From: Selenomonas sp.
GTDB lineage: Bacteria > Bacillota > Negativicutes > Selenomonadales > Selenomonadaceae
Length of the DNA stretch: 64,000 bases
Direction: 5' to 3'
Assembly (NCBI RefSeq): GCF_022771645.1
Contig: NZ_JALFCU010000080.1
Coordinates: forward strand, 26,495-90,494
A program made the translations under genes and the position numbers. Shown in pieces: positions 882 to 20,797 of this stretch. Under the pieces are notes generated by a model. It saw only the letters and a list, made by a program, of their open reading frames with translations, was not told where the DNA came from and searched no databases. Every line of letters starts with the position of its first letter. Position 1 is the stretch's first letter.

Positions 882-885
882 TGTC

Positions 886-1569
886 TCATTCCCATCCGAA
901 CAATTTCTTTGTTTCCAAATAGTCCTCTACAAAGTCAATCTCATGCCATTTTTTGTCCGTGACGAGATTGTAAAACATGTGCTTCTGACAAATATCCGTA
1001 ATCGCCGGCGTGTACCATGTGTGGATGTTCTTCTCACTGAGCAAAGCTTCCCTAAAATCTGCCACAGCACCCCGACCGACCTTGAAAATACTCATATAGA
1101 CGTATCCTGTATGAGGATAACCTTTCCCGATGGCAAGCACGCGGCCATTTCCATCAACCTTGATTCCTGTGCTCTCATCGAGGTCATCAGACTTCCGACT
1201 CAAGACGAGGTTCTCATGCTCATCCTGAATCACATCTTCCAACAGGCTCTCATCAAAACACAGGTCGGTGTCGAGAATCAGCACATCGTCTTCCGGGACA
1301 TGTTCCAGTGCATACCCCAGGCTGTACGAGTTTTCGTACTTATCATAATCTGGATTGACAATCAGATTCGGCACAATGGGGCGAAGCAGTTCCGCCCGAT
1401 AGCCTCCGAGCACGTAAATGTCATCGTCAACAATTCCGACGGAACGCAGCTGCTTCAACTCGCGTGACAAGATGGTGTCCTCGCCGAGCGGCAACAAGCA
1501 TTTAGGTTTTCCGTTCGTGTATGCGCCGAGACGCTTTCCTTGTCCGGCAGCCAGGAGAATTGCTTTCAT
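886..1569 (-). CDS. LicC-like sugar/choline-phosphate nucleotidyltransferase
   Basis: Track ORF 886..1674 trimmed to the internal ATG (1567-1569), giving MKAILLAAGQGKRLG...GKPKCLLPLG, a canonical LAAGxGxRL NTP-transferase motif. The start overlaps the stop of the upstream licD-like gene (ATGA). Confidence 0.75.
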   Translation of the reverse strand: MKAILLAAGQGKRLGAYTNGKPKCLLPLGEDTILSRELKQLRSVGIVDDDIYVLGGYRAELLRPIVPNLIVNPDYDKYENSYSLGYALEHVPEDDVLILDTDLCFDESLLEDVIQDEHENLVLSRKSDDLDESTGIKVDGNGRVLAIGKGYPHTGYVYMSIFKVGRGAVADFREALLSEKNIHTWYTPAITDICQKHMFYNLVTDKKWHEIDFVEDYLETKKLFGWE

Positions 1570-2402
1570 TCGTTTTTTCCTTCCAAATCTGGTTCGACGA
1601 GCTGGAGTCTCGAGACGGGATGCACTTTCCGTTTCTCTACAGGTGGTAATGTCATGTAATCCCCAAACTCCCATGTCAGGAATCCGTCATAGTCCTCGAT
1701 GCCACAAAGCTGCACGCCCTCGAATTCCATCAATGGATTTGTCTCAAACCAACGGCGATGATAACACGCGTCTGGGCGCGGATTCGGCATGAAGGAAATC
1801 CGTACTTCCCTGCTTTTGATACCTTTGCAGAAGCCGATATATAGGTTGACGTATTTCTTCACGAACGAGAACGGCATACGGTACAGCATCTGGAACCACG
1901 CACGCTTGAGCCAGCTTTTCGCCGTAAAGCGGCCGACGGCCGACCAAAAAATTTTTCGCAGGCAATAGCAATGAACATCGAACAACTTTCTTCCAAGATA
2001 CGCGTCGGGAACATTGTCGAGCGGCATGATATCGATGAACACGCCTTGTTCATACGGCATATGTTCCTGGTGCTCGCGCATGAACGTCGTTCCCTTGCGT
2101 CGCAATTTTCCGTATCCCCAACGATAACCATCCGTCACATGCATATCCTGGAAATAAAATTTTGACGAGTCCAATTCTGTCTTGCATGCTTCACGAAATT
2201 TTTCATAATCATCGCGGAACATCACGAGATCCGCATCGTCATCCCATGGGATGAAACCTCCGTGGCGCACCGCGCCCAACAGCGTCCCGCCAATGATGTT
2301 ATAGCGAATACCGCATTTCTGACAGATGCGATGGACTTCGACGAGGAGCTCGAGCTCGATGTGCTGGAGCTGGCGCAGTTGTGCTTGCGTGAGATGGATC
2401 AT
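1566..2402 (-). CDS. licD: LicD-family phosphotransferase (phosphocholine/phospho-alditol transfer to glycans)
   Basis: MIHLTQAQLRQLQHIELELLVEVHRICQKCGIRYNIIGGTLLGAVRHGGFIPWDDDADLVMF carries the LicD signature (GGTLLGAxRH, IPWDDDxD). Start trimmed from the track GTG at 2498 to the ATG at 2402, which matches typical LicD N-termini. Confidence 0.75.
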   Translation of the reverse strand: MIHLTQAQLRQLQHIELELLVEVHRICQKCGIRYNIIGGTLLGAVRHGGFIPWDDDADLVMFRDDYEKFREACKTELDSSKFYFQDMHVTDGYRWGYGKLRRKGTTFMREHQEHMPYEQGVFIDIMPLDNVPDAYLGRKLFDVHCYCLRKIFWSAVGRFTAKSWLKRAWFQMLYRMPFSFVKKYVNLYIGFCKGIKSREVRISFMPNPRPDACYHRRWFETNPLMEFEGVQLCGIEDYDGFLTWEFGDYMTLPPVEKRKVHPVSRLQLVEPDLEGKNE

Positions 2403-2526
2403 GCTGCGGACGCTCCGTTCCTCGATGACGCGTGTTTTGTCATTGTCTCCAAAAGATTTAGTTCCAAAGAACTCCCCTCCAAAGGATTCACTTCTCACAT
2501 CATATCACACTCCAAAGGATAGGGCA

Positions 2527-2556
2527 ATAAAAAAGCAGAGCGCGATGGCTCCGCTT
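2527..2556 (-). terminator. Rho-independent terminator downstream of the DUF4411 gene
   Basis: Minus strand has an AAGCGGAGC/GCTCTGCTT stem (1 mismatch) followed by TTTTTTAT, 33 nt after the stop at 2589. Confidence 0.45.
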
Positions 2557-2588
2557 AGGAATTGGTGGTTCAACTAAAAATAATCAAA

Positions 2589-3101
2589 TCATAGACGAAA
2601 GTGCATCCGTCGCATAAATGAAAAGAGGTTCATGCATGGTACCTGAAAGTGGTCTGCAACATCAGGAATTTTTACTTTCCCTGTCGGGGACTTGGGTGAT
2701 AATGTGCCGACGGATTGCTCTTGCGTGACGACCCATGCCCCCTCCATCGTCAACGCAGCAGCAATCAGCCACGGGTCTGCAACAGTTCGTTTTGCCCACG
2801 CAATGATACCTGCCTGTGTATAAAATTTGCATTCCGATACATATTGCTGCACTTTCGCGTACGACATGACGACATTTCCTGTTTTTGTCGAAAAAGGTCT
2901 ATATTCGTTAATTTCTCTCATCCACGGCCCAATTTCTTCATCCTTCATAATCTCATCGTGAACTTCGCGAATGACAAGTACGTCCGGTCTCACCAAAACC
3001 GAACGCAGCTGTTTCCAAAAACTAGGCGCAAAATCGTAACCGTAGAAAGTTCGCGCAGGCGCAATAAAGCAGTTGGAATCTAAAAGGTACACCTCACTCA
3101 T
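2589..3101 (-). CDS. DUF4411-type PIN-like domain protein (putative toxin/RNase partner of ImmA)
   Basis: MSEVYLLDSNCFIAP...WLIAAAL...; the N-terminal LDSN acidic motif and size fit the PIN-like DUF4411 family. The start overlaps the upstream ImmA stop by ATGA (3098-3101). Local GC is about 45%. Confidence 0.65.
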   Translation of the reverse strand: MSEVYLLDSNCFIAPARTFYGYDFAPSFWKQLRSVLVRPDVLVIREVHDEIMKDEEIGPWMREINEYRPFSTKTGNVVMSYAKVQQYVSECKFYTQAGIIAWAKRTVADPWLIAAALTMEGAWVVTQEQSVGTLSPKSPTGKVKIPDVADHFQVPCMNLFSFMRRMHFRL

Positions 3102-4288
3102 ACCAGCATCCCCCTCACTTTGTCCATCAGTTTGGAGAATGTTTTTCCATTCATTCCAGTCAAACGATACGCATCAACATAAGACGTGCGGCCGCTTTTC
3201 GTACTGGCATCCAATGCCTGCAAAAAATGCGTATCCCATCGGCTGAGCTTCATCGTATAATATTCTCCACCAACCTTTTTCTTCTCCTTCTTTTTCTGTT
3301 CCCTATATTGCGCAAGGATCGCCTGCACCATTACTTGATATGTCATACGAGAGATGAACTTCGTATCCAGTGCACGACGCAAGACAGGAATTTTTCCGCA
3401 TCGGAAATAGGTGGAAAGTATCTCCGATGTCTGATTGACATCACCACCAGCATCTGCAAACGCTGCTTCCCATTTCGAGGGAAATATACTCATAGGAAGC
3501 AAAATCTCTGCTGCAACAGCATTACAACGGGTTTCGACCGGATCAACAAAAATATGCTCGCTCCCCGTATTGAGCAGACTGTCTTCGCCAAGCCAGATAT
3601 GTGCCAATTCATGCGCCAAGGAAAAGAGTTTCCCGCCTGCAGAATCACAGGCGTTGATGAAAACCAGCGGCGCAAAAGGATGTACGAGAGTAAAAGCGCG
3701 AAATTCTTTTACATCCAAGGGACGGTTGCTCCCAGGACCAACAACGCCGCTCTGCATCACAAGGATGTTCGCATGCATCGCTTTTTCTCGCAAAAAGCGA
3801 AACGCTGCTTCACGAGAGCTTCTTGCATCACGATACCACTCGAGCGAAAGGTCTAATTCCATGCGGATAGATGGCGCGATTTCTGATATGTGCATATTTT
3901 CCGAAGCACTGCCAACAAACGGCAACGGAGCGAAGCCATTTTCCTGCCGATGCTCGGCCATCCAATCTTGTACCAGTAGCATATGGTTGACAACATCGAT
4001 GAGTTCGCGACTAGGTTCTGCAACGCCCTTGCTCTTCAAGGTACGATAATCTGCAATCGTCGTTTCTTTTTCCGGCGGATGCTGCAAGAAAAAATAACCA
4101 AAGGGAATTCTCGTATCCTTGCTCAGTTGTTCCACTTTTGCCAGTGTCGGCACCTGTTCCTTCTTCATCCAAGCGTCCAACAAACCAATCTGATCTTGCG
4201 CTTTCCTCGTAACAGGGCACTGTTCTAAAATTACACGTTTCACCCACCGCAAAATTTCTGGCTGAATAGCAACTTCGACCTTCGGCAT
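3098..4288 (-). CDS. HTH (XRE-like) plus ImmA/IrrE-family zinc metallopeptidase
   Basis: HELAHIWLGED is the HExxH motif of the ImmA/IrrE (M78) family. The N-terminus PTLAKVEQLSKDTRIPFGYFFL is HTH-like. Start moved from the track GTG 4297 to ATG 4288, which follows GGAGGTG by 5 nt. Confidence 0.8.
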   Translation of the reverse strand: MPKVEVAIQPEILRWVKRVILEQCPVTRKAQDQIGLLDAWMKKEQVPTLAKVEQLSKDTRIPFGYFFLQHPPEKETTIADYRTLKSKGVAEPSRELIDVVNHMLLVQDWMAEHRQENGFAPLPFVGSASENMHISEIAPSIRMELDLSLEWYRDARSSREAAFRFLREKAMHANILVMQSGVVGPGSNRPLDVKEFRAFTLVHPFAPLVFINACDSAGGKLFSLAHELAHIWLGEDSLLNTGSEHIFVDPVETRCNAVAAEILLPMSIFPSKWEAAFADAGGDVNQTSEILSTYFRCGKIPVLRRALDTKFISRMTYQVMVQAILAQYREQKKKEKKKVGGEYYTMKLSRWDTHFLQALDASTKSGRTSYVDAYRLTGMNGKTFSKLMDKVRGMLV

Positions 4289-4409
4289 CGTTCTCACCTC
4301 CGCACGCGATGTACCATATCACAAACGACCTCTATGTCACTAAGAACACAGAGGCCGTCATTTCATCAGCTCTTGCAAAAGACGGATTCTGAAATGTCCA
4401 TCTGTTTAC

Positions 4410-4438
4410 ATAGTATGTGATTTTTTCGCAAAAGTCAA
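4410..4438 (-). promoter_or_regulatory. Sigma-70-like promoter for the ImmA/DUF4411 operon
   Basis: Minus strand reads TTGACT (4433-4438), 17-nt spacer, TACTAT (4410-4415). Confidence 0.5.
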
Positions 4439-4510
4439 TTGAATTTCAAACGACTTGATAGCTCCACTGAGGAGGGGGCGCGGCATGCTGCCTCGTGCGA
4501 TATTTTTATT

Positions 4511-6061
4511 TCACGTCCCTCGTTTCACGAGGACGTGCTTTTTGCAGAACGCGACGCCGTAGCGCCAGATGGCTTTCGTGCCTGCGGCTTCGAGTTCTGT
4601 GATGTAGGATTTTTCGTCGATCTGATGGAGGGCGTCTTCCGTCGCTTTTTCGAGCGCTGCTTCGTCTTTGACGGTTTTGAATTCCATGATGACGCCGGGG
4701 AGGTGCGGCTTCTTCGGCAGCATCGCGAGGTCGAAGCGGCCGTCGCCGCTCTCGCGGTTCGAGAGGACGCGGTAGTCCGCTTCGTAGAACAGGGTGCAGC
4801 CGAGCATGAGGCCGTGGTAAAAGCTTTCCGCATCGGCGGCGTCGTGAGAGCTCACGGCGCGCCGGAGGATGCCTTGGAAGATGCGTTGGAACTCGTCCGC
4901 CCTGCCTTGCTGGATGGCGAGCCCCATTTTGTAAAACGAGACGACGCCATAGCTCTCATCGACGCGGTCTATGATTTCGCTCTGGAACAGGTTGCGGATC
5001 TCGAGGTTCGGGATGGCGAGCTCATACAGGCGTTCGCTGCCGAGCTTGACGCTCCCGACGGCTTTGAGGTAGCCGGTCTGCAGGAGCATCGTGTAGATGT
5101 CCTTGCTGTTTTTCCCGATGTCATCGTAGATGACGCCATCGCGGATGGCAGCCGCGATGGTGCCGCCGGTCAGGAGCGTGCGGAGCTCGCCCCACCGTTC
5201 TTCGTCGGCTTGCGCGAGCATCGTCCGGATGATGTCATTGCCCGAGGTGTTGACCCAATAGGGCTCGGCTTCGCAATTTTGTTTGAAATAATTGTTGACC
5301 GACCAAGGGTTATAGATTTCCTTCCCTCGGAAATTATAACCATCATACCATTCGGCAAGTTCCTCAAGCTTATCCTCGCGGCCAAGATCGCGTGCAAGTT
5401 TTGTGACTTCCTCTTTCGTATAGCCGCAAGCATCCATGAAGCCTCCCTGGGAGACGGAAGAAACTTCGAGGTTGTTCAGCCCGCTGAAGATGCTTTCTTT
5501 CGCGATGCGCAGGACGCCGGTGAGGATGGCGAAGTCGAGCGCGGGATTTGATTTCAGCGCGATGGAATACAAGTTGCGGAAAAATCCGATGGCTTCTTTG
5601 TAGTAACCGTGCATCCACGCGTGCTGGATCGGCGCGTCGTATTCGTCAATGAGCAGGACGACTTTTCTCCCGTAGTGCTGCTCGAGCAGCTGGCAGAGGA
5701 GCTGGAACGCTTTGCCCATGGTTTCGGGCGTCGCCTTGCCGACGAGGAGTGCTTCATAGGACGCCCGCAGGCCGTCGTCCATGTCCTCTTGGCGCAGGAA
5801 CGCAAACCGGTTGTACAGGCGGGAAAGCTCCCATGCGATGTTTTTCTGCATGCCGTCCCACGTGTCCCATTCGAGGTTTTTCATCGTTAGGAAAATAACA
5901 GGGCGCGTGCCTTGCTCGGCCATCGCGACGGGATCGTCCATGACCTGGAGGCCCTCGAAGAGCTTCCGATGTTCTTCGGCGTGCTCGATGTCGAGGAACT
6001 GCTGCGTCATCGACATGAGGAGCGTCTTGCTGGAGCGGCGCGGGCGCGTGAGGAGGGTCAC
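4511..6061 (-). pseudogene. AAA-ATPase-like plus C-terminal PD-(D/E)XK nuclease-family protein, 5'-truncated
   Basis: TLLTRPRRSSKTLLMSM matches the RPRRFGKS-type P-loop of this family, and the C-terminal ...GDGRFDLAM...VIMEFK is PD-(D/E)XK-like. Family-like sequence (LFDCDFFRGHADV) continues in frame upstream of the GTG into the lpxI terminator hairpin. The usual roughly 20 N-terminal residues and any own promoter or RBS are missing. Confidence 0.6.
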
Positions 6062-9761: not shown

Positions 9762-9780
9762 AGCTTTTTTATCATACTAC

Positions 9781-9819
9781 AAAAAGGGAAGCGCGGTCAA
9801 CCTGCGGCCCCGCTTCCCC
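9781..9819 (-). terminator. Rho-independent terminator after the HEPN-motif gene
   Basis: Minus strand has a GGGAAGCG..CGCTTCCC stem followed by TTTTTGTAG, 9 nt after the stop at 9828. Confidence 0.65.
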
Positions 9820-9827
9820 GGAAAAGC

Positions 9828-10925
9828 TCATCCGTCCGCGAGCGGATAATCGTAAAGCGGCTCGATGTCGCTGAGCGCGAGCGGATGGATGTGCGCCAGC
9901 GTGTTGCGCGCTTCGCGGAAACGCTCGAGGCTCTCGCGCTCGCGCTCGCTCATGCGGAAGCGTGACCGGTAAGAGTAAATCGTGCCGAGCTCGAGGTCGC
10001 GCCCGTCCTCGATTTTCTCGTGGTTGCCGTTGTAGATGGTCTCGACGGCCACGAGGCGCGCGGCTTCGTCCTGGTGACGCTCGAGGAACGCGATGCGCTG
10101 CGCCTCGAGATAGGGAAAGACCGTCTTGATCTGCGCTGTCCAGATGCGGCGCGCGACGTCGCCGGCGGGCGCCGGGAACGCGCTGCCGTCGCTGCGCGCC
10201 GTGTCCTGCAGGACGCGGGCGAGCGTCTCCTCCGGCGCGTGGTACAGGCTGTCCGCCGTACGCAGGAGCGCGGCGCCGAGCTCGACATCGCCGCCCGAGA
10301 CGCTCGTCGCGAGTTCGGCGAGGTACGGGCGCAGCCGCTCTTTCGCCGGGCTGCCGGAGAGCTGCGCGTTGCGGGCGCGGACGCTGTGGAAGAGGTGGAC
10401 GTCGTAGCGCGTGACGTCATCGTCATAGGAAAACGTGCGGACCGCCTTGCTGCGGGGCGGCGTGCCGTCCGCCATCTCGAACAGGCAGATGGCGCCCGCC
10501 CGCCCGCCGCACGCGCGCTGGTAATCCGAGAGGAAATCCAGCCACGCTTTGAGCTGCGCGCGCGTGACGCCCGTGAACCAGAACGTGCGGTTCGGCAGGG
10601 TCGTGTCCTCGAGCCCCGCGAGGAATTCCGCATAGTGGCGCCCGTGGCGATAGGCGCGCGCCAGGCTGCCCTTGCAGCATTTTTCCAAAAGGCAGGCGCC
10701 GATGTCTTCGACGTCGGCGGCGTCCACCATGACGATGAGCCGGTTCGGGTCGCCGCTGTCGATGCGGTCGCACAGGAAGCGGCGGAACGCCGCATGCCAC
10801 GGCAAGTGCTCCGGCACCTGGAGGACGACGGAGCGCTGGTCGAGGACGGTTTCCACGACCGCACGCGCAAAGCCGGCAGGCGACGAGACGTGCTGCCACC
10901 AGAGTTCTTCATCGGTGTATTCCAT
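9828..10925 (-). CDS. 365-aa protein with a C-terminal HEPN-like Rx4H motif; N-terminal half resembles a degenerate P-loop fold
   Basis: ERFREARNTLAHIHPL contains R-N-T-L-A-H (9891-9908), the R(N)xxxH HEPN RNase signature, in the last predicted helix. The N-terminus has strand-like SVVLQVPE / LIVMVDAAD / AICLFEM but no GKS/T. RBS GGAGG overlaps the stop of the upstream giant gene (12-nt gap). Confidence 0.55.
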   Translation of the reverse strand: MEYTDEELWWQHVSSPAGFARAVVETVLDQRSVVLQVPEHLPWHAAFRRFLCDRIDSGDPNRLIVMVDAADVEDIGACLLEKCCKGSLARAYRHGRHYAEFLAGLEDTTLPNRTFWFTGVTRAQLKAWLDFLSDYQRACGGRAGAICLFEMADGTPPRSKAVRTFSYDDDVTRYDVHLFHSVRARNAQLSGSPAKERLRPYLAELATSVSGGDVELGAALLRTADSLYHAPEETLARVLQDTARSDGSAFPAPAGDVARRIWTAQIKTVFPYLEAQRIAFLERHQDEAARLVAVETIYNGNHEKIEDGRDLELGTIYSYRSRFRMSERERESLERFREARNTLAHIHPLALSDIEPLYDYPLADG

Positions 10926-10937
10926 CCCGGCGCCTCC

Positions 10938-13900
10938 TCATTCCATGTAGTCTTCGAGCTCGTTCTCGACGACGTTCTTCCGCCCCATGAGGTGGAAGAA
11001 CGACTGGCGGCTGAAGACGTAGCTACCGTCGGCGCCCTTGCGCAGGACGTTGAGGTCGCAGAGCTCGTCCATGAAGGCCTGGAGCTTCTGCACGGTGAGC
11101 GCGCGGATCTGCACGACGTTGTACGCTTCGGCGGTCGCGTGGAGCTCGTCCGGACGGTAACCGCGGATGCCTTCGTTGTAGTAGAGGAACGCCAGCAGGA
11201 GCGCGATGATCATGTAGTAGTTGTCGTTGTCGAGGCCGAGCGTGATGCGGAACTTGTTGCGGACTTCCCATTTGAACTCCTCGTCGCCGAGGACGTCCAT
11301 GATGTGCTGCTCTTCGACGTAATAGATGGGCGCCTTGCCCTCCCCATAGTAATCGAGGCTTTCGCCGCACAGGGTGTCGACGAGCTTCTTGCAGTAGAGC
11401 TGGATGAGCCCCGGGAAATAGTTCGCCTGTGCGAGGATGAGAGCGATGTAGTTCTCCGGATTCTTCTTCGTGCGGCCGCCCGGGCGCTGCGCGAAGCGGA
11501 TGCCGAGGTAGTAGAGCGGCCACTCGAGGAGCTCGCGCGCCTCGCCGACGTGGAACGGCTTCACCGTGATGGACGAGAGGTGCGCGAGGCCGCTGTTGCT
11601 GCGCAGGGCATCGTCGCGGTAGAAGCGGACGATGTCGTGCAGGCCAGCGATGACGAATTTGAAATGGACGTTCTCGTCGCCTTGGAGCTCCTTGAGTGCA
11701 TTGAGGGGCTTGTAGCCCTCGTCCTTGCAGTGCTCGATGAAGATGTCGGCTTCGTCGAGCATGAGCAGGAAGTAGTAGATGCGGTTCGTCGGCTCGCGCA
11801 GGCGCGCGGAGATCCGATCGACAAGTTGCTGCCAGTCCCGCACCTCAAACGCCGTCTTGAAGAAGTGCTCTTCGTTGAGCTTCTTGCAGACGCGCTCCGC
11901 AGCCCCTTCGGTGTCCTGATCCTGGATATTGACGACGATCGCGCGGTTCACCGTGTTGCGGTCGACCTTCTGGTAGTTGATGTCGTTCGCCGCCATGCGG
12001 AGGATGGCGGACTTGCCGAGCTGGCGGCCGCCGTAGATGATGTTCGGCCCCTTCGGATCCTCGATGTCCGCGAGCTCTTTCTTGCGACCCATGAACATCT
12101 CGGGCGGCATGGAGTTGACGGCGTCCGGCACGTACGGCTGGTAGTAGCAGAACGGCATGATGAGCATCATGAGGCGGCGGTTCACGTCCGTCTCGTCGTA
12201 GTGGCGGAACAGGTAGTACGTGACGACGCGGTCGATGATGGCAAATGTCGTATTGAGGCAGGCTTTCTTGATCTTGCGCGCGTAGCGGCGGAGCGTCGCG
12301 ATCTTCAGCGCGTAGTCGAGGAAGACGATGGTCGGCTTGCTCGCGCCGCCGATCTTCGCGACGGTGTTGACGAGGCCCTCGTCCTTGTACTCGCCGAAGA
12401 GGCAGACGACGCGGAAGCTGTTGTCCCCGCCCTGCGCCTGCGAGCCGAACGCGGCGATCGGGTGGATGTAGCGGGACTTGCTGTGGTTCAGGGGATCCTT
12501 GAGCTTCACGTTGAACGCGAACTTCGTGCGGCCCGTGACGGCGAGCCTGTCCTCCTCGCTCTCGACGTCCAGCTCCTCGACGGATGCGACGTCCCAGCCG
12601 AGCGCGTGCAGGAGGTTCTTCATGCGCTCGCCGTCCATCGGGTTCTTCAGCCAGTTTTCCTTGATTTCCTGGCGGCCGCGCTCGACTTTCGGCGAGCCCT
12701 TGCCCGAGCGGCTCTCGAGCAGCCGCTTGAACGAGCGGCTGTTGTTGATGACGGTGTAGTTGTCTTCGTATTCGCGCAGGTAGTTCGCGAGGTGGTCGGC
12801 TTCGCCTTTCGGCAGCTCGATGCCGCCCGTGTCGATGTCGCCCTCGGCCCAGCGGCGGAGGTCGTCCTGCGCGACGGTGTAGTTCTGGTCGTCGATGGCG
12901 TCCTGGATGGAAAGGAGGAACTTCGCGTGGCGCTCGTCGAGGTCGCCTGCGCGGAGGCGCTCGACCTCTTCCTGCAGGCGCTCGCCATGCGCGGTCGCCG
13001 CCTGCTCGATCTCGCGGCGGAACGCGGCGTCCGCGCGGCGGAACGCGCCGTAGTTGCGCGTTGCCTCGGCATAGCTGCGGCAGTCTTCCGCGAGGCGCAG
13101 GTAGTCTTCTTTCTTGATTTCGCCATCGCCGCGCTCATCCACGTCGCCGACGGCATCCTCCAGCGCACCGCAGCACTGCTTATACTCCAGGTAGTTCTTG
13201 AATTTCTCGAACGCTTCGTCGAGCCCTTCGCCCGCGCGCCGGCTGTCTTCCTCGATGATGTGCCGCTCCTTGGCGAGCGGCGACGTGCCCGTGAGGATCT
13301 GCAGGCGCGCGTCGATGAGCCCGAGCGTCTGATAATCGTCCGCCGCCTCCGAGCGCGGATCGAGGAGCGCGTCAAGGCGCGCCGAAAGCGCAGCGGCGGC
13401 GTCCGCCGGGCGCTCCGCCGCCGCATAGGCGCGCAGCGCAGCGAGATATTTCTGGCGGGGCGCGCGGATATGCCAGAACGCACGGAAGTCCGGCAGGTAG
13501 TCCTGATCCAGCAGGAGCTCCGTCGCGGACAGGAAGCCGTCGTAGAACATGCGCGGACGGCTGGCCTCCGGCGCGCCGTCCATGCGGAAGGCAATCTCTG
13601 CGAGCGCCCTGCGCAGGACGCGCAGGCCGGCTTCCAGGACGGGGTCGCCCTCGGCTGCGAGCGCGGCATCCGCCTCGTCGAGCGCTTCATGCACCTGCTT
13701 GCGGAGAGCCTCCAGCGCCGCGTCGCGGTCTTCCTGCGGCGCGATGGTATCCGCTGCGGTCAGCTCGAGCCAGCGGCGCAGGATGTCCGTGCTCTTCGTG
13801 AGGTCGCTCAGGAGGCCTTGGCCGAGCGCGCCCTTGATGCGCTCCGTCTTCTTGTCCACCTTGCTCGACGTGCGGTCCCAGGCGGCATTGATGTATTCCT

Positions 13901-16628
13901 TGAGCTTTTCCGGGTCGATGTTCCACTCGCCGGGCGCCGCCTTGTCGTCGCAGAAGAACGTCGTGAGGAATTCGCTGACGCCTTCGGCCTGCGCCGTGTC
14001 ATCCTCCATGACGGCCGCAAGGGACATCGCGAGGTCGTCGTTTTTCCCGTAGACGTCCAGCATCGTGTGGTAGACGTGGAGGTTCAGCCGGTTCTGCGTT
14101 GGATGGAGGACGTTCTTGTGGTAGTCGAGCTCCGCCTCTTTGCGCAGGCTGGCGAGCTGCTGCTCGCGCTGCTGCTGGCGCGGGTAACGGTACGCGGCGT
14201 AAAAGTCCGCGCCTTTCTCATACGTTTCCTTGAACGATTTCAACTTGTGGATGAGGTTCTTGGCGCTCTGGCAGCCTTCTTCGCCGAGGTTCCGCTTCAC
14301 GATGTCACGGAAGAACGTATCCATCATATAGTCGTGCGGCAAGTCGTTCGAGAAGAACGCGCGCAGCGCGGCGGCGGCGAGGAGGTACTCGTCGAGGACG
14401 CTCTGCGCGCCCTCGTAAACCTCCATGAGCTTCGACGAGGCATGCACGGGATGCACGGCGGGATCGTCGAGCGCATACGACAGGCGCAGGCGCGCCTCTT
14501 CCCACGCCTCATCGAGATGGCTGCAGTAGCCGAGGTACGCAGCCGCGCAGTCGTCCCGGCCGGCGCAGAGGAACGTGACGACGTCCTGCATCACGTCGTC
14601 GTCCGCCGCCTCGCGTCCGGACGTGCCTGCCGGGGCCGCGCCCGATGCTTCTTCCGCTGGGGCACGGCCGCCTGCGTCTGCCGCATGTCCCGCCGGCGCT
14701 ACCGTCTCCTGCTCCGCCGGGAGCTCTGCAGCTGGCGCGTCCGCTTCCTGTGCCGTCGGCGGCTCTGCAGGGGGCGCGTCCGGTTCCTGTGCCGTCGGCG
14801 CCCCTTCGGCTGGCGCATCCGCCGCCTCCTCCGTCAGTGCCTCTGCAGGGGGCGCGCCCGCCTCGTGCTCCGCCGGCTCGGGCACGGGCGCGGCGTCCGT
14901 CGTCAGCGCCCCTTCGGCCGGCTCCTCCGCTTCTTCGCCCGCCGAGGCCCCCGTCGATGCCCCGTCTTCCGTTCCGTCTCCCGGGATCCCCGCAGCAGGC
15001 CCCGGTTCTGGCACCGGTTCCTCGTCATCGTCCTCCGCGTCCTCCGCGTCATCTGCCTCCCCTGCCCCATCCGCAGCGAACCAATCCGGCGCGGGCGTCC
15101 ACGCGGCGTCGTACATCTGGTTTTCCGGCAGGAGGTAGAAATACGTCGGCACCTCGCGCAACGCAGGGAAAGCGTCGTGCACGAACGCCACGAGATGGTC
15201 AAGCTGCTCGCGCTGCATGCCGGCGATCGTGAAATCGAGCGTCTTCCCCTCCACCACGAGCTCCGCGAACGCGTCCCGGAACGCTGCGGCCTCTTCGCCG
15301 TCATGCTGTTCGCCGGCAAACCAGAACAGCATCAGGTGGCGGCGGTTTTTGCCGTCGTTCAGTCCCATCGCCATGGCCGCGAACGCGTTGTAGATCCGGC
15401 GGCGGGCATCCGTCGATTTCGGATAGCCCATGGTCTCCTGGCAACGCACGTGCAGGCGGCTCATGGCGAGGCGCGCCGCCGCATACGACGCCTTATCCGC
15501 GATCGGCTCGCCGCCGTCATCCTCTGGCTGCACTTCGAGGCCGAGCCGGTTGCACACCTTCTCGAGCGACAGCGCATGCTTGAGCTTCGGCGTCGCCACG
15601 CAGAACGCGCCGCAGCCTGCGAGCTGGAATTCGCGCAGGTATCCCATGTGGATCAGCTGGTACTTCACCGCCTCGTAGTCCCCGCTCTTCCAGCGATGCT
15701 GCCGCCACCGCAGCAGCGTGTCCTCGCAAAGGTAGTCCACGGCTGGCAGCACCGACAAGAGTGCCCCTGCGCACATGCGCACGTCCTTCACCATCTTGCG
15801 CCAATCGGACAGGAACGCTTTCGCGCTCTCCTTCGCCTGGGATTTCGGCGTCAGCGGCTGCACCGTCAGCTCGCCATAGTCGAACGACGCCGGCAGCAGC
15901 GTCCCTGCCGCCTGCAGCTTCGCCCAGAGCGCCTCGTCTTCCGCAGATGTGACAGGCAACGGTGCCGGCTCGCCCGGCATCCCGTCCGGCTCCTCCGGCG
16001 CAGGAGGCGTCCCTAGATCTGCGGGAGCATCCGGTTCGTCCGTCCCGTCCTCCGGAGCGTCTGCGACATGCATCGTGCCGCCGGCGAACGCATCGCCGAG
16101 CAGGCCGATGGAAAACCGCCCCGTGGCGGCCAGCTGCATCATCTTCAGGCTCCGTTCGCTGCCCTGCGCGCGCCACGCCTCCGCGAAATCGAGATACGGC
16201 CGCAGCGCCTCCTCCGCAGGCGCCCCGTCCTGCGCGAGGAGCGCGCGCAAAGCCTCCTGCACCTGTGCGAGCTCCGCACGCACGTCGTCGCGCTCCGTCT
16301 CGAGCTGCAGGAACCAGCGCGCCGCCTCCGCCTGCTCCTGCGCGGCCGCTGCGGCCTCCATCCACTGCGTCATGCCGCCGAGCGCTGCAAAATCCTGCGG
16401 CTCCTGCGGCGCATGCGCGCCGGCCGCCACGGCCCGCACGCGCGCCCGCTGCTCCTTCACAGCCGCGAGCGCCTGCTGCACCTCGTCGCAGAGCTCGTCC
16501 GCGACGAACGCGTTGTCGTCCGCGAGCGCGTGCGCGAGCGTTTCCACGGATGCGGCAAGCGCCGCATAATCCTTTCGCATGGAAGCGGCCAGCGCCCGGG
16601 CCGCCTCGGCTTCCTGTCGGAAATCCAT
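10938..16628 (-). CDS. Giant (1,896-aa) multidomain protein with a C-terminal P-loop (Arch_ATPase/ORC-like) ATPase and winged-helix-like tail
   Basis: Walker A is FMGRKKELADIEDPKGPNIIYGGRQLGKSAIL (GGRQLGKS at 12009-12032). Walker B is YYFLLMLDEADIF (11745-11768). The N-terminal roughly 1,300 aa are coiled-coil/helical with two acidic Pro/Ala-rich disordered stretches. Start trimmed to the ATG at 16628 (MDFRQEAEAA), 8 nt after GGAAGGAG. Confidence 0.8.
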   Translation of the reverse strand: MDFRQEAEAARALAASMRKDYAALAASVETLAHALADDNAFVADELCDEVQQALAAVKEQRARVRAVAAGAHAPQEPQDFAALGGMTQWMEAAAAAQEQAEAARWFLQLETERDDVRAELAQVQEALRALLAQDGAPAEEALRPYLDFAEAWRAQGSERSLKMMQLAATGRFSIGLLGDAFAGGTMHVADAPEDGTDEPDAPADLGTPPAPEEPDGMPGEPAPLPVTSAEDEALWAKLQAAGTLLPASFDYGELTVQPLTPKSQAKESAKAFLSDWRKMVKDVRMCAGALLSVLPAVDYLCEDTLLRWRQHRWKSGDYEAVKYQLIHMGYLREFQLAGCGAFCVATPKLKHALSLEKVCNRLGLEVQPEDDGGEPIADKASYAAARLAMSRLHVRCQETMGYPKSTDARRRIYNAFAAMAMGLNDGKNRRHLMLFWFAGEQHDGEEAAAFRDAFAELVVEGKTLDFTIAGMQREQLDHLVAFVHDAFPALREVPTYFYLLPENQMYDAAWTPAPDWFAADGAGEADDAEDAEDDDEEPVPEPGPAAGIPGDGTEDGASTGASAGEEAEEPAEGALTTDAAPVPEPAEHEAGAPPAEALTEEAADAPAEGAPTAQEPDAPPAEPPTAQEADAPAAELPAEQETVAPAGHAADAGGRAPAEEASGAAPAGTSGREAADDDVMQDVVTFLCAGRDDCAAAYLGYCSHLDEAWEEARLRLSYALDDPAVHPVHASSKLMEVYEGAQSVLDEYLLAAAALRAFFSNDLPHDYMMDTFFRDIVKRNLGEEGCQSAKNLIHKLKSFKETYEKGADFYAAYRYPRQQQREQQLASLRKEAELDYHKNVLHPTQNRLNLHVYHTMLDVYGKNDDLAMSLAAVMEDDTAQAEGVSEFLTTFFCDDKAAPGEWNIDPEKLKEYINAAWDRTSSKVDKKTERIKGALGQGLLSDLTKSTDILRRWLELTAADTIAPQEDRDAALEALRKQVHEALDEADAALAAEGDPVLEAGLRVLRRALAEIAFRMDGAPEASRPRMFYDGFLSATELLLDQDYLPDFRAFWHIRAPRQKYLAALRAYAAAERPADAAAALSARLDALLDPRSEAADDYQTLGLIDARLQILTGTSPLAKERHIIEEDSRRAGEGLDEAFEKFKNYLEYKQCCGALEDAVGDVDERGDGEIKKEDYLRLAEDCRSYAEATRNYGAFRRADAAFRREIEQAATAHGERLQEEVERLRAGDLDERHAKFLLSIQDAIDDQNYTVAQDDLRRWAEGDIDTGGIELPKGEADHLANYLREYEDNYTVINNSRSFKRLLESRSGKGSPKVERGRQEIKENWLKNPMDGERMKNLLHALGWDVASVEELDVESEEDRLAVTGRTKFAFNVKLKDPLNHSKSRYIHPIAAFGSQAQGGDNSFRVVCLFGEYKDEGLVNTVAKIGGASKPTIVFLDYALKIATLRRYARKIKKACLNTTFAIIDRVVTYYLFRHYDETDVNRRLMMLIMPFCYYQPYVPDAVNSMPPEMFMGRKKELADIEDPKGPNIIYGGRQLGKSAILRMAANDINYQKVDRNTVNRAIVVNIQDQDTEGAAERVCKKLNEEHFFKTAFEVRDWQQLVDRISARLREPTNRIYYFLLMLDEADIFIEHCKDEGYKPLNALKELQGDENVHFKFVIAGLHDIVRFYRDDALRSNSGLAHLSSITVKPFHVGEARELLEWPLYYLGIRFAQRPGGRTKKNPENYIALILAQANYFPGLIQLYCKKLVDTLCGESLDYYGEGKAPIYYVEEQHIMDVLGDEEFKWEVRNKFRITLGLDNDNYYMIIALLLAFLYYNEGIRGYRPDELHATAEAYNVVQIRALTVQKLQAFMDELCDLNVLRKGADGSYVFSRQSFFHLMGRKNVVENELEDYME
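14724..14879 (-). repeat. In-frame 39-bp tandem repeat (about 4 units, the last two degenerate) inside the giant gene
   Basis: Plus-strand units are ctctgcagctggcgcgtccgcttcctgtgccgtcggcgg and ctctgcagggggcgcgtccggttcctgtgccgtcggcgc. They encode the 13-aa periodic PTAQE(A/P)DAP(A/P)AE linker. Confidence 0.6.
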
Positions 16629-16700
16629 CGTATCCGCTCCTTCCATTTGCTTTCTCTTCTTATTTCTCCATCTCATCGCGATTTCCTGCCGTGCACACGC

Positions 16701-16726
16701 AAAAAAGCCGCGCTTGCCAGCGCGGC
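16701..16726 (-). terminator. Rho-independent terminator after the radical-SAM gene
   Basis: Minus strand has GCCGCGCTggcaAGCGCGGC followed by TTTTTTGCG, 18 nt after the stop at 16744. Confidence 0.7.
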
Positions 16727-16743
16727 GGGATGCCTCCCATATG

Positions 16744-17652
16744 TCATCCTGCGGAAACGCCGTTGCCGTCGAAGCAAGGGACGTATTCCTCGCTCGCGGC
16801 GCGGCGCTCCTGCGTGTAACAATGCGTCATGCCGAGCGCGAGCGCGTGGTCCACGACGCTCTCGTACTCGAACGTCGTGAGGCGGCGGTGGAGCGGCCGG
16901 TGCTCCGCTGCGCGGTACATCGGCGTGTACTGGTTCATGAGCGAGACCTGGATGGCGTCGCCGAACTGCTCCCAGAGCCAGTCGAGGATGCGCATGCTCT
17001 CGTGGCGGTGGCCGGGCAGGACGAGATGGCGCACGAGCACGCCGCGCGTCATCTGGCCGTCAGCCGCGAACCGCGCGGGACCGACTTGGGCGAACATCCG
17101 CTCGATAGCCGCCGAGGCCGCCGCAAAATAATCGGGCGCGGCGGAGTATTCGCGCGCGGACGCTTCATCCATGTATTTCAGGTCAGGCAGGTAGATGTCG
17201 ACGCTGCCCGCGAGCGCGTCAACGAGCGCCGTCGTTTCATACGCGCCGGAGTTCCAGACGACGGGCAGCGAAAAGCCGCGCGCCTTCGCGAGCGCAAGCG
17301 CGTGGAGGATCTGCGGCGCGAAATGCGTCGGCGTCACGAGGTCGAGCGTCGCGGCGCCCCGCCCTTGCTGCTCGAGGAAAATCTCGGCAAGGCGCTCGTC
17401 CGTCACGTCAATGCCGTGGCCGTCATGCGAAATCTCGTGGTTCTGGCAGAAGCAGCAACACAAATTGCAATGCGAGAAGAACACCGTCCCCGCCCCGCGC
17501 CCGTCTTTTCCTACGAGGCACGGCTCCTCCCACGGATGGAGCGACACGAGCGCGACGCGGGCGAGCGCGCCCGCGCCGCAGAAGCCCGTTTCGCCCGCCG
17601 TGCGGTCGACGTGGCAGCGGCGGGGGCACAAATTACAATATGTTTGTTTCAT
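16744..17652 (-). CDS. Radical SAM protein, PflX-like (putative glycyl-radical-enzyme activase family)
   Basis: FFSHCNLCCCFCQNHEIS is a CxxxCxxC-type cluster motif, plus an N-terminal Cys-rich CNLCPRRCHVDR...GFCG. Size and layout resemble COG1313 PflX. No obvious SD lies upstream (cgaaataattttATG). Confidence 0.75.
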   Translation of the reverse strand: MKQTYCNLCPRRCHVDRTAGETGFCGAGALARVALVSLHPWEEPCLVGKDGRGAGTVFFSHCNLCCCFCQNHEISHDGHGIDVTDERLAEIFLEQQGRGAATLDLVTPTHFAPQILHALALAKARGFSLPVVWNSGAYETTALVDALAGSVDIYLPDLKYMDEASAREYSAAPDYFAAASAAIERMFAQVGPARFAADGQMTRGVLVRHLVLPGHRHESMRILDWLWEQFGDAIQVSLMNQYTPMYRAAEHRPLHRRLTTFEYESVVDHALALGMTHCYTQERRAASEEYVPCFDGNGVSAG

Positions 17653-19006: not shown

Positions 19007-20797
19007 TTATTCCCTCGGCTTCCAGCCGTGCCGTGCGTAGCAGGCGATCTTGTCTTTGTACATGGCGCGGTCGGCTTCGGCTTGGAGGTCTTTGTAGCTC
19101 GTGTGGCCGCTGGCTGGGCGGGCGAGGCCGAAGGCGACGGAGACGTTTTCGAGTTCGAGCTTTTGCTGGATGCTCTCGGCGAAGCCTTGGGCGGCATCGT
19201 GCGGGAGCTCGGTCGTGAACGCGGCGAATTCATCGCCGCCGATGCGGTAGACGTGGTCTTTGCCGAGGGCGGCGGCGAGCTCGCGCGCAGCGGTGGTCAG
19301 GAGGCGGTCGCCTTCGGCGTGGCCGAGGGTGTCGTTCGCGCGCTTCAGGCCGTTGACGTCGGCCATGATGAAAATCGTGCCCTGCGGCGCGATGCCGTTC
19401 CCGTATTCGCTCGCGAGGAGGTAGGCGTTGTGGCTGCGGACGTCCGTCATTTCGTCGTAGAGGCTGAGTTTTTCCAGGCGGGTCGCTTCGGCCTGCTCGT
19501 AGTGGATGCAGCTGTGGACGTCGTTGAAGCCGTTGTAGATGGCGCGCACCATGTGGGCGCACGTATCGTAGCCGCAGGCGGCGCAGTCGATGTGGCGCGA
19601 GGCTTCGTCGTATTTGTGCAGGCTGTCGTAAATGGCGTCTTCTTCTTCGCGCGACGGCTGCCAGTCCTGGCATTGCGCCGAGCGGTCGCGGTAGGTGCGC
19701 TGGTAGTCGCGCGGGTTCAGCCCCTCGAAGCGTTCGTTGAGGAGCGCGAGGCGTTCGGCGGGCGGCACGCTTTTGTTCCACGGGCCGGCGTCGTCGCGGA
19801 CTTCGCGCTGGTGCATGCGGTTCAGCAGCGTGTAGTAGGCCTGGTCGTGGTCGTTGCAGCCGGGCGCGTTCGCCGTGCCTTCGAGGCAGCCGTCCTGGCA
19901 GTTGACGATGTCGACGATGGAAAACGGCAGCGCGCCGCGCAGCAGGCCGTCCGCGTTGCGGTCGAGCCAGCGGTACGCGTAGCGCTTGCCGGAGACGCTC
20001 CGCACATAGATGTCGTCGCCGAGGAACCAGCGGAGGTTCGTCGCGAGGCCGTCGGGCGCGGGATACGCGAGGCCGAGGCCGTAGCCCGTGTCTTCCTCGC
20101 TCGTCGCATCGCCGAGGCCGTGCGCCTCGAGGTATTTCATGAGGGAACGCAGCGTGATGTTGTAGGAGATGGCCTCGTAGCGGCCGTCCCTTTGCTTTTC
20201 GAGCGTCTTGCCGATGCACGGGCCGATGTAGGCGAGGCGGTCGGTGATGTAGAGGCGCGTGCGCGCGTAGATGGCCATGCACTGCGTCGGGCTCTGCACG
20301 GGCAGCAGGTGGCCGAGGAGCTCGGGGTGGAAATGCTCGATGTACGAAACGATGACGGGGCAGCGCGACGAGAGGAAGCCCATGCGCGGCCGCTCCGCGA
20401 GGTAGCGGAGCGTCGCCCACGTGCAGATGTCCGCGCCGAACGCGACGGGCAGCAGCCGCCGCGCGCCGAGCACGCGCAGCGTGCCGAGGATGCGGCGGTA
20501 CGACGCGGGGAACGACGACTCGATGGCGGGCGAAAGGAGCACGGAGATGGGCACGCCGTCCGCGAGGTCGCGGAAAAAGCGGTCCGTGTCGTCCGTGTAG
20601 CTCCGCGCGTCGTGCGCGCAGACGGTGAAGCATGCGCCGCAGGCCGTGCAGCGCAGAGGGTCGACGGCGATCTGCGTGCGCCCGCCCTCGCGCTGCGAGA
20701 TGCACGCGCCCATGGACGAGCAAACGCCGACGCATTTGTTGCAACCGATGCAGTTTTCGTTCGTGTAAATGAGGCCTTCCGCTTGCATGGCGCTCAC
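19007..20797 (-). CDS. Sensory [FeFe]-hydrogenase-like protein (2x4Fe-4S ferredoxin + H-cluster domain + Cx2Cx4Cx16C) fused to a GGDEF diguanylate cyclase
   Basis: Ferredoxin motifs are CIGCNKCVGVC and CTACGACFTVC. H-cluster-like motifs are SSRCP (C146), GPCIGKTLE (C194) and NCQDGCLEG (C300/C304). CAACGYDTC-x16-C spans C405-C430 (19508-19585). The C-terminal domain has YDEMTDV...RIGGDEF (19226-19240). Confidence 0.8.
   Translation of the reverse strand: MSAMQAEGLIYTNENCIGCNKCVGVCSSMGACISQREGGRTQIAVDPLRCTACGACFTVCAHDARSYTDDTDRFFRDLADGVPISVLLSPAIESSFPASYRRILGTLRVLGARRLLPVAFGADICTWATLRYLAERPRMGFLSSRCPVIVSYIEHFHPELLGHLLPVQSPTQCMAIYARTRLYITDRLAYIGPCIGKTLEKQRDGRYEAISYNITLRSLMKYLEAHGLGDATSEEDTGYGLGLAYPAPDGLATNLRWFLGDDIYVRSVSGKRYAYRWLDRNADGLLRGALPFSIVDIVNCQDGCLEGTANAPGCNDHDQAYYTLLNRMHQREVRDDAGPWNKSVPPAERLALLNERFEGLNPRDYQRTYRDRSAQCQDWQPSREEEDAIYDSLHKYDEASRHIDCAACGYDTCAHMVRAIYNGFNDVHSCIHYEQAEATRLEKLSLYDEMTDVRSHNAYLLASEYGNGIAPQGTIFIMADVNGLKRANDTLGHAEGDRLLTTAARELAAALGKDHVYRIGGDEFAAFTTELPHDAAQGFAESIQQKLELENVSVAFGLARPASGHTSYKDLQAEADRAMYKDKIACYARHGWKPRE

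Follow-up and report, generated by a model that had tools for sequence, protein, structure and literature searches.

The window analysed here, a stretch of 64,000 nucleotides (nt) from a Selenomonas sp. genome (contig NZ_JALFCU010000080.1), carries two adjacent minus-strand genes that encode a giant protein of 1,896 amino acids (aa) and a smaller partner protein of 365 aa. With a little better than even confidence, this pair is interpreted as a self-contained, horizontally moving conflict module, most likely an anti-phage system of the abortive-infection type. An earlier note on the same DNA had recognised in the two genes the logic of abortive infection, that is, a sensor/switch NTPase combined with a HEPN effector, and the analysis described below supports this view. 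The interpretation as a conflict-type sensor/switch with an effector follows from the strict pairing of the genes, their autonomous insertion at unrelated sites and an empty site in close relatives, as well as from the concentration of sequence divergence in the N-terminus of the giant and an invariant nuclease-type motif in the partner. Three findings had been named beforehand as speaking against it, namely a housekeeping family for the giant combined with a non-HEPN fold for the C-terminus of the partner, fixed synteny of the pair, and a failure of the two genes to co-occur elsewhere. None of the three was made.

Pairing, distribution and insertion of the two genes

The strict association of the two genes is most evident from their homologues. 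Among 80 genome loci, complete giants are mostly 1,700-2,100 aa long, and a partner homologue lies directly downstream of the giant in 79, the sole exception being a contig end. The gap between the two genes in relatives ranges from -53 to +154 nt and is mostly between -8 and +4 nt. The same pairing is found at metagenome loci (L001, L003, L004-L010, and L113) and on plasmids, where Salinibacter ruber carries a pair of 1,927 and 377 aa and Microvirga a pair of 3,394 and 538 aa. Co-occurrence outside the window, on which the earlier note had made its reading depend, is borne out by these loci. In the plasmid pMVF16-3 of Microvirga sp. VF16 (L115 1-10800), the giant is annotated as 'RNaseH domain-containing', and the partner keeps the motif ARNKVAH and has an added C-terminal, kinase-like AAA_33 P-loop domain (E=4.4e-14).

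The family is widely distributed. Whole-protein searches, which returned only 6 matches for the giant and 3 for the partner, had suggested extreme rarity, but this impression was rejected as caused by the word prefilter. With only the final 420 aa of the giant as query, 121 clusters are retrieved at 36-53% identity; the short ATPase homologues are fragments of giants from contig ends or frameshifts, each followed by a partner homologue. A HMMER search with the partner yields 1,612 representative clusters at E<=1e-3 and 352 at E<=1e-30, nearly all of them 340-370 aa long. A genome scan based on the ATPase alignment, with one genome per species, gave at least 594 matching stretches, although the number of carrier genomes may be nearer half of this figure because the two search patterns lie within the same gene. 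The matches listed include Lachnospiraceae, Selenomonadaceae, Oscillospiraceae, Ruminococcus, Phascolarctobacterium, Erysipelotrichaceae, and one spirochaete. Cultured carriers include Butyrivibrio proteoclasticus P6B7, Eubacterium ramulus ATCC 29099, Ruminococcus callidus, and Salinibacter ruber (pSR118), and giants related to these are also present in Streptomyces and further phyla. In all, the coupled pair is found in hundreds of bacterial genomes from several phyla.

In two distant giants, P0003 and P0004, the place of the partner is taken by a Lactamase_B/Beta-Casp/RMMBL nuclease encoded by the next gene, with overlapping stop and start codons. In P0005 and P0006, which are related to these two giants, a partner with the motif RARNxLAH is retained. 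The replacement of the partner by a beta-CASP nuclease in distant relatives supports an effector role of the partner. The beta-CASP loci are L002 7163-9262 (699 aa, next to a giant of 2,142 aa) and L112 6573-8471 (632 aa, next to a giant of 2,018 aa).

The position of the pair was compared with the corresponding site in close relatives, of which a metagenome scan with the LpxC protein of the window provided three (LpxC 92, 92, and 86% identical); look-ups of the exact LpxC and radical-SAM protein sequences of the window gave no recorded match. Their gene order is pfkB, radical-SAM, lpxC, fabZ, lpxA, lpxI, and in all three the radical-SAM gene directly adjoins lpxC (gaps of ~45-125 nt), without giant or partner. 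Consequently, the module interrupts the radical-SAM/lpxC junction and not an lpx cluster, and the view of the earlier note that it lies where an lpx cluster should continue has to be abandoned. In the junction alignment, homology with the empty site ends near 16757 and picks up again near 9824, which delimits a block of ~6.9 kb (~9825-16756) that comprises the two genes and, ahead of them, a terminator of its own. This terminator, which sits downstream of the radical-SAM gene, is missing from the empty sites of L091 and L092 and thus belongs to the extra DNA. Because the site is empty in three relatives, the block is most likely an insertion; loss in all three is possible, but it is less parsimonious, and less likely, than gain in the lineage of the window. 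As the earlier note had stated, the module cannot be distinguished from its host by composition (block G+C 61-68%, with a matching G+C content at third codon positions, GC3). The nearest homologue is only 41-43% identical. At both junctions (16757-16775 and 9806-9824), the alignment falls on one and the same stretch of ~17-18 bp in the empty site (TTTCGATGGAAGCGGGGT in L091), which suggests an imperfect target duplication with about 10/17 matches between the copies, or alternatively reflects slack in the alignment.

These observations bear directly on the idea that the giant has a structural housekeeping function, in the cytoskeleton or in chromosome partition, and acts with an accessory factor. 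Such a role would fit the long, Ala-rich, apparently helical N-terminal region of the giant and the host-like G+C and GC3. However, the genes are missing at the same site in relatives whose LpxC is 86-92% identical, the flanks vary between loci in place of a fixed synteny, profile searches against Pfam and NCBIfam match the giant only to P-loop models, and neither these searches nor those against the PDB place it in a housekeeping family. The presence/absence polymorphism at the site already contradicts the housekeeping explanation, which is scarcely credible.

The flanking genes differ from locus to locus, and across 87 loci none of them accompanies the pair as a conserved third gene. The largest neighbour cluster, an ABC-transporter ATPase, is found at 12 of these loci and at varying positions. 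The neighbours of the pair are unrelated to replication, and no replication or repair gene is conserved nearby. Conflict-type neighbours are present at some metagenome and plasmid loci, including NB-ARC/TPR STAND, PIN/MazE, and DEAD-YjiV_N-MZB helicase genes as well as DO-GTPase2, zeta toxin, and DUF3320. PADLOC matches among the neighbours were considered as a sign of defence enrichment and then downgraded, the commonest neighbour cluster being that of the ABC-transporter ATPases.

A two-gene unit of this kind could also be a selfish addiction module similar to toxin-antitoxin systems, in which the partner would be a HEPN toxin and the giant its regulator or antitoxin, and which would persist through post-segregational killing with no dedicated anti-phage role. 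The strict coupling with overlapping stop and start codons, the solitary insertion amid housekeeping genes and outside defence islands, the occurrence on plasmids, and the invariant nuclease-type motif of the partner would all be expected of such a module. However, a protein of 1,900 aa with a fast-diverging N-terminus and an intact ATPase would, to our knowledge, be far larger than any known antitoxin, and the exchange of the effector for a beta-CASP nuclease, together with the N-terminal divergence, suits sensor-effector immunity better. In addition, toxin-antitoxin function and abortive infection can coexist. A purely selfish addiction module is therefore considered rather unlikely.

Domain architecture of the giant and its partner

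Across 64 aligned giants, column conservation increases along the protein, from 0.16-0.33 (aa 1-690) through 0.34-0.55 (aa 690-1400) to 0.5-0.74 (aa 1400 onwards). The fast-diverging N-terminal part consists of an Ala-rich, apparently helical stretch (aa 1-185), an acidic Pro-rich linker (aa 182-225), and a globular region (aa 241-505), and it is followed by a second linker. In aa 506-680, the residues P, A, E, D, G, T, and S make up 89% of the sequence and hydrophobic residues 7%, with an alignment occupancy of 0.53-0.70. The two acidic Pro/Ala-rich linkers described by the earlier note were thus recovered by composition, at aa 182-225 and 507-683. A winged helix near aa ~300-350 is possible; the sole hint is a PDB profile match to eS25 that is not significant (E=0.066).

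The first ~1,500 aa of the giant give no Pfam match when consensus segments are searched and no credible PDB profile match for aa 250-500 and 690-1400. The family-specific region aa 690-1384 matches no Pfam family even from the family consensus, and the primase large subunit, which appeared in the PDB profile search of aa 690-1400 (E>=0.013), was judged to be a chance match. The conserved domain preceding the ATPase (aa 1385-1475), with the motifs HPIAAFGS, FRVVCLxG, LDYAL, and RRxLARKxK, has no Pfam family match either. A candidate ExK nuclease motif in this domain (GEYK, aa 1412-1415) was rejected because its positions are not conserved.

The giant is predicted from its sequence to end in an intact ATPase of the AAA_22/ATPase_2 type. 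This region begins with FMGRKKEL (aa 1512-1519) and contains the Walker A motif GGRQLGKS (aa 1533-1540, nt 12009-12032) and the Walker B motif LLMLDEAD (aa 1621-1628, nt 11745-11768), after which FKFVIAGL(H/R)(D/N) follows (nt 11640-11663). Across the aligned giant ATPases, GGRQLGK, D-E-x-D, and F-K are invariant, and Walker A, Walker B, and the sensor-1 polar residue are all present and invariant or nearly so. In a Pfam search of 35 giant relatives, AAA_22 is matched by all 35 (best E 7.5e-8), AAA_14 by 32, ATPase_2 by 31, and AAA_16 by 16. Matches to STAND models in the same set are sporadic and weak (nSTAND4 5, nSTAND1 3, nSTAND6 2, NACHT 1), and the distant giant P0004 has a precomputed nSTAND1 match. 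The giant of the window is itself sub-threshold for AAA_22 (E=0.0022, 18.7 bits vs a 27-bit cut-off), and its only matches in Pfam, NCBIfam, and PADLOC are sub-threshold P-loop matches within aa 1512-1674. These results agree with the earlier description of an ATPase similar to the origin recognition complex (ORC) or to STAND proteins. The architecture of a STAND protein was not found, as the large non-ATPase part is N-terminal and nothing lies beyond the ATPase tail. On this sequence evidence, the domain falls in the borderland between ORC, TniB, and STAND ATPases and is not demonstrably a STAND.

The best PDB matches of the giant ATPase in profile searches are VchTnsC (E=0.009, from Walker A to past sensor 1) and Cdc6 (E=0.2), and there are weak, sub-threshold Pfam matches to TniB (E=0.0013-0.01). 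Together with the insertion of the block and the possible imperfect ~17-bp duplication at its junctions, the TniB and TnsC matches could indicate machinery of a mobile element, with the giant as a TniB/TnsC-like regulator of target selection or transposition and the partner as its adaptor. This explanation is very improbable, as within the window neither the block nor its immediate surroundings contain a transposase, an integrase, or terminal inverted repeats, and none is conserved across the 87 loci. Moreover, the TniB/TnsC matches stay below threshold and cover only the generic P-loop core, and the ~1,500 extra residues of the giant have no counterpart in these proteins.

The N-terminal part of the partner was examined by structure prediction. 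The AlphaFold2 model of the protein (predicted local distance difference test, pLDDT, 82.7; predicted template-modelling score, pTM, 0.71) was compared by Foldseek with the PDB, where the matches are RFC small subunits, Orc1/Cdc6, and ORC subunits (probability ~1.0, E ~7e-4), and with BFVD, where viral clamp loaders are found (probability ~1). The matches span nearly the whole partner (345-390 aligned columns), yet the template-modelling (TM) score is ~0.3 and the sequence identity 8-14%. They reproduce the three-part layout of clamp-loader and ORC subunits, which includes an AAA+ base, a lid, and a helical third domain. Neither GK[ST] nor hhhhDE is present in the partner family, and LxxPxxxPW stands at the position of Walker A. 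Judged by this model, the partner is an AAA+ protein that appears to have lost its nucleotide-binding motifs, in other words a pseudo-ATPase, as the earlier note had anticipated in describing a degenerate P-loop-like N-domain.

The C-terminus of the partner is probably a HEPN domain. A HEPN motif is defined by a conserved Rx4-6H, usually with a polar residue after R, and in the partner this corresponds to RNTLAH at aa 340-345 (nt 9891-9908). Only four residues are invariant among 79 diverse partners, and R340 and H345 are two of them; N341 and A344 are conserved in at least 90%. Of 149 partner representatives, 147 contain the pattern R[ND]x[LI][AS]H, which is shared by the distant partners from actinobacteria, Salinibacter, and Microvirga. 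In the full-length model, where the pLDDT of this region is 86-91, helix 327-344 closes with R340 and N341, H345 opens a loop, and helix 351-359 follows; a hairpin insert is located at aa 295-304. In this model, the placement of the motif at the end of a helix, followed by a loop, agrees with the position described for HEPN domains (PMC3710099). In a Pfam search of the 79 partners, HEPN_Swt1 is matched by 17 (best E 0.0028), DUF4145 by 3, and HEPN_RiboL-PSP by 1, all below the cut-off, and unrelated families are each matched by only 1-2. The family consensus also gives sub-threshold matches, to HEPN_Swt1 (E=0.02) and HEPN_LA2681 (E=0.019). The HEPN signature that the earlier note had seen in the partner therefore holds as a conserved motif, while at the level of profiles every match stays below threshold.

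Several results weigh against the interpretation as an abortive-infection module. The Pfam HEPN matches reach at best ~15 bits, compared with a cut-off of 27.5 bits, and the PDB profile search with the partner family returned no HEPN or other match. The isolated C-terminal domain of the partner gives a poor model (pLDDT 65), and the Foldseek search with that model was empty. Foldseek aligns the C-terminus of the partner, too, with clamp-loader subunits, whose third domain is the helical collar, and on the model the domain could be collar-like. Comparison of the partner with the giant ATPase by hhalign finds no sequence relationship. No homologue was found in phage genomes, and a promoter scan recognised no sigma-70-like promoter in the 78-nt leader of the giant. 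Proximity to known defence genes, which had been proposed as a check, gave a divided result: conflict genes occur at several loci, but the 140 immediate neighbours sampled are mostly housekeeping genes, and no enrichment was demonstrated. The PADLOC matches AriA, Old, HEC-01A, and mad3 among the neighbours are probably ordinary ABC-transporter ATPases.

Some of these points would suit a non-nuclease AAA+ machine, in which the giant and a delta-prime-like inactive subunit would form an assembly similar to clamp loaders or ORC that loads or remodels a component on nucleic acid; accessory replication, repair, and the organisation of the nucleoid are examples of such a role. The C-terminus of the partner would then be a collar or oligomerisation domain whose R and H bind a ligand, with no cleavage of RNA. 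Like delta-prime, the partner has no functional nucleotide-binding motifs, and the clamp-loader/Orc1/Cdc6 layout was found in two Foldseek libraries, where the whole partner is matched to RFC small subunits, Orc1/Cdc6, and the pol III delta subunit. The best solved sequence relatives of the giant ATPase are TnsC and Cdc6, and the sub-threshold HEPN matches and the empty Foldseek search with the isolated domain also agree with such a machine. On the other hand, the partner differs from clamp-loader and ORC proteins in its low TM score, in the lack of a PDB sequence match and of a replication context, and in a last domain with an invariant R-N-x-x-x-H. The motif R-[ND]-x-x-x-H at the end of the penultimate helix in nearly all relatives is the HEPN signature, and a bona fide nuclease family takes the place of the partner in related systems. 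Furthermore, the patchy distribution, in which close relatives have an empty site, speaks against a core role in DNA metabolism, as does the absence of conserved replication or repair genes nearby. A loader without nuclease activity is consequently regarded as unlikely.

Gene layout and other features of the window

The coordinates of the module are collected in Table 1. The open reading frame (ORF) of the giant, counted from the first ATG, covers 10938..16676 on the minus strand (1,912 aa). The start at 16628 has AAGGAG 8 nt upstream, and the resulting 1,896 aa are identical (100%) to the independent gene call P0001. As the G+C content of the window is 63%, long spurious ORFs are to be expected. 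One of them lies opposite the giant (10020-16016, plus strand, 1,998 aa), and a naive longest-ORF caller would choose it over the real giant gene. It was rejected as a gene because its G+C content at first and third codon positions (GC1 0.874, GC3 0.684) is the signature of an antisense shadow, whereas the GC3 values of giant and partner are the same as those of neighbouring genes. Codon-position G+C thus indicates that the minus-strand giant and partner are truly coding and the plus-strand ORF is a non-coding shadow.

The two-gene unit described by the earlier note, with a 12-nt gap and a Shine-Dalgarno (SD) sequence that overlaps the first stop codon, was read directly in the sequence, and all motifs that had been claimed were found at their places in the two translations. 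The position of the SD sequence over the stop codon of the giant is consistent with translational coupling of giant and partner. Hairpins with T-runs flank the unit, and the stretch that the earlier note had described as bracketed by terminators coincides with the ~6.9-kb block that the relatives lack. The upstream terminator is clear, whereas the downstream hairpin (9819-9785, followed by U5) has a z of only -1.3 vs shuffles, which is not significant taken alone, and was missed by the terminator scanner. At the empty sites of L091 and L092, a homologous hairpin follows the radical-SAM gene, so that the hairpin is also kept in relatives without the module. A promoter-like element for lpxC (TTGACC-18-TATGAT, 9771-9800, minus strand) lies within the 3' arm of the hairpin and its U-tract, an arrangement that these relatives share. 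Rfam and tRNA scans of the window gave no matches.

Table 1. Coordinates of the giant/partner module in the window.
Feature	Coordinates	Strand	Evidence or remark
Giant gene, 1,896 aa	10938..16628	minus	ORF and translation; GC3 0.864; identical database gene call P0001
Giant aa 1-505, fast-diverging N-terminal part	15114..16628	minus	Column conservation 0.20-0.33
Giant aa 507-683, linker 2	14580..15110	minus	Acidic, Pro/Ala-rich, low complexity
Giant aa 690-1384, family-specific conserved region	12477..14561	minus	Conservation 0.34-0.55
Giant aa 1385-1475, conserved domain before the ATPase	12204..12476	minus	Column conservation, 64 giants
Giant aa 1505-1896, predicted P-loop ATPase and C-terminal helical tail	10941..12116	minus	AAA_22/ATPase_2 (ORC-Cdc6/TniB/STAND-like)
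Partner gene, 365 aa	9828..10925	minus	ORF and translation; GC3 0.883
Partner aa 1-241, clamp-loader/ORC-like AAA+ alpha/beta domain and lid	10203..10925	minus	No Walker A/B
Partner aa 250-365, helical C-terminal domain, HEPN-like	9831..10178	minus	R340-N-T-L-A-H345
Intergenic spacer, 12 nt	10926..10937	minus	SD GAGGAGG (10933-10939) over the TGA stop of the giant
Giant leader, 78 nt	16629..16706	minus	SD AAGGAG at 16637-16642
Intrinsic terminator between radical-SAM gene and module	16707..16726	minus	8-bp stem (7 G-C), 4-nt loop, TTTTTT
Hairpin and U-tract after the partner gene	9780..9819	minus	Fold -20.9 kcal/mol; pre-existing host sequence, outside the insert

Other features of the window lie outside the block. 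Positions 1-4500 form a low-GC island (47-50% vs ~63%) that is probably foreign DNA. It includes a LicD-family gene (1566-2498, minus strand) and an overlapping pair of genes for an ImmA/IrrE-type Peptidase_M78 protein (3098-4297, minus strand) and a DUF4411 protein (2589-3101, minus strand), which looks like a toxin-antitoxin or defence pair. Between this island and lpxI, a gene at 4511-6061 (minus strand) encodes a 516-aa protein with AAA-ATPase_like (PF09820) and PDDEXK_9 nuclease domains. A further gene at 19007-20797 (minus strand) encodes a protein of 596 aa that resembles the large subunit of [FeFe]-hydrogenases, with ferredoxin-type clusters and a C-terminal GGDEF diguanylate cyclase domain, and that may be a redox- or H2-sensing signalling protein.

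Comparison with known systems and possible mode of action

The earlier note had been unable to assign the pair to a named system, and the searches lead to the same result: Pfam, NCBIfam, and PADLOC give no match above threshold for the giant or the partner of the window, and no description of the pair was found in the literature. In PADLOC-DB 2.0.0, the giant matches only PDC-S01, on the P-loop (E=0.026, 11 bits), and the partner matches nothing. Distant homologues likewise have no PADLOC match, except for a marginal one to PD-T4-5 (E=0.0084), which falls on the motif in the partner from Salinibacter.

The comparison with known systems can be extended to those that share part of this architecture. 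In one such group, DUF499/BrxC-like ATPases are fused to HEPN domains of the Swt1/Abi2 type (Ava_2192 family; Hma/BREX-related type 1), and the HEPN domain is read as a suicide RNase (PMC3710099, PMC12839542). As in the present pair, an ORC-Cdc6/STAND-like AAA+ ATPase is coupled to HEPN, and the Swt1/Abi2 group is the source of the weak matches of the partner. In the DUF499-HEPN systems, however, the HEPN domain is fused N-terminal to the ATPase, and a methyltransferase and a helicase-nuclease are also needed. In the pair, the HEPN-like domain is carried by a separate pseudo-AAA+ protein, and the ATPase lies at the far C-terminus of the giant. No DUF499 match was obtained for the giant of the window or 35 relatives, and no third gene, be it a methyltransferase or a helicase-nuclease, is conserved across the 87 loci.

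Avs and other antiviral STAND proteins also combine a large NTPase acting as sensor and switch, a nuclease-type effector, and a fast-diverging sensor region, and a few weak nSTAND1/4/6 matches point in their direction. In Avs proteins, the effector is N-terminal and a TPR-like sensor C-terminal within a single protein. The domain order of the pair is reversed and its effector is encoded by a separate gene, the best models of the giant are AAA_22/ATPase_2 and not NACHT or NB-ARC, and the PADLOC models give nothing above noise. A long coiled-coil is present in RloC. PrrC and RloC likewise join an NTPase to a HEPN-type RNase (PMC3710099), but each of them consists of one polypeptide with an ABC/Rad50-type ATPase, and a restriction-modification partner keeps PrrC silent. 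The present module instead has an AAA_22-type ATPase, two separate proteins, and no linked restriction-modification genes. The pair is thus set apart from DUF499-HEPN, Avs, and PrrC/RloC systems by its domain order, its separate pseudo-ATPase effector, the lack of methyltransferase and helicase partners, and the lack of model matches.

If the module acts in abortive infection, its mode of action could be pictured as follows. The fast-diverging N-terminal ~690 aa of the giant, and perhaps also the conserved helical middle part, would detect a cue from the invader. Binding or hydrolysis of ATP in the C-terminal AAA+ module of the giant would then cause a change of conformation or oligomeric state. 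The partner would dock on this AAA+ module via its pseudo-AAA+ domain, in the manner of inactive subunits in clamp loaders and ORC. HEPN RNases need two adjacent Rx4-6H motifs to build an active site. Activation may juxtapose two partner C-terminal domains, and thereby two HEPN motifs, upon which RNA would be cleaved and growth would stop.

A broader interpretation, offered tentatively and with less than even confidence, is that the pair represents a widespread, undescribed class of immune or conflict systems. In this class, a clamp-loader-like pseudo-ATPase that carries an RNase would dock on the AAA+ module of a sensor of ~1,900 aa and be switched by this module, so that a heteromeric AAA+ loader would have been repurposed for abortive infection. 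The effector would be interchangeable between HEPN and beta-CASP, and the systems would be found in gut and rumen Bacillota, for the most part away from defence islands. Cultured carriers make experiments on such a system feasible, and its architecture, in which a giant sensor has an AAA+ switch at its C-terminus and the nuclease is carried by a distinct pseudo-AAA+ adaptor, is a testable model for the gating of a nuclease by an AAA+ protein. If the interpretation is correct, it would add to the bacterial conflict systems a large protein family pair that currently has no Pfam, NCBIfam, or PADLOC model, and it would describe a system that stands solitary among housekeeping genes and has been missed by island-based discovery.

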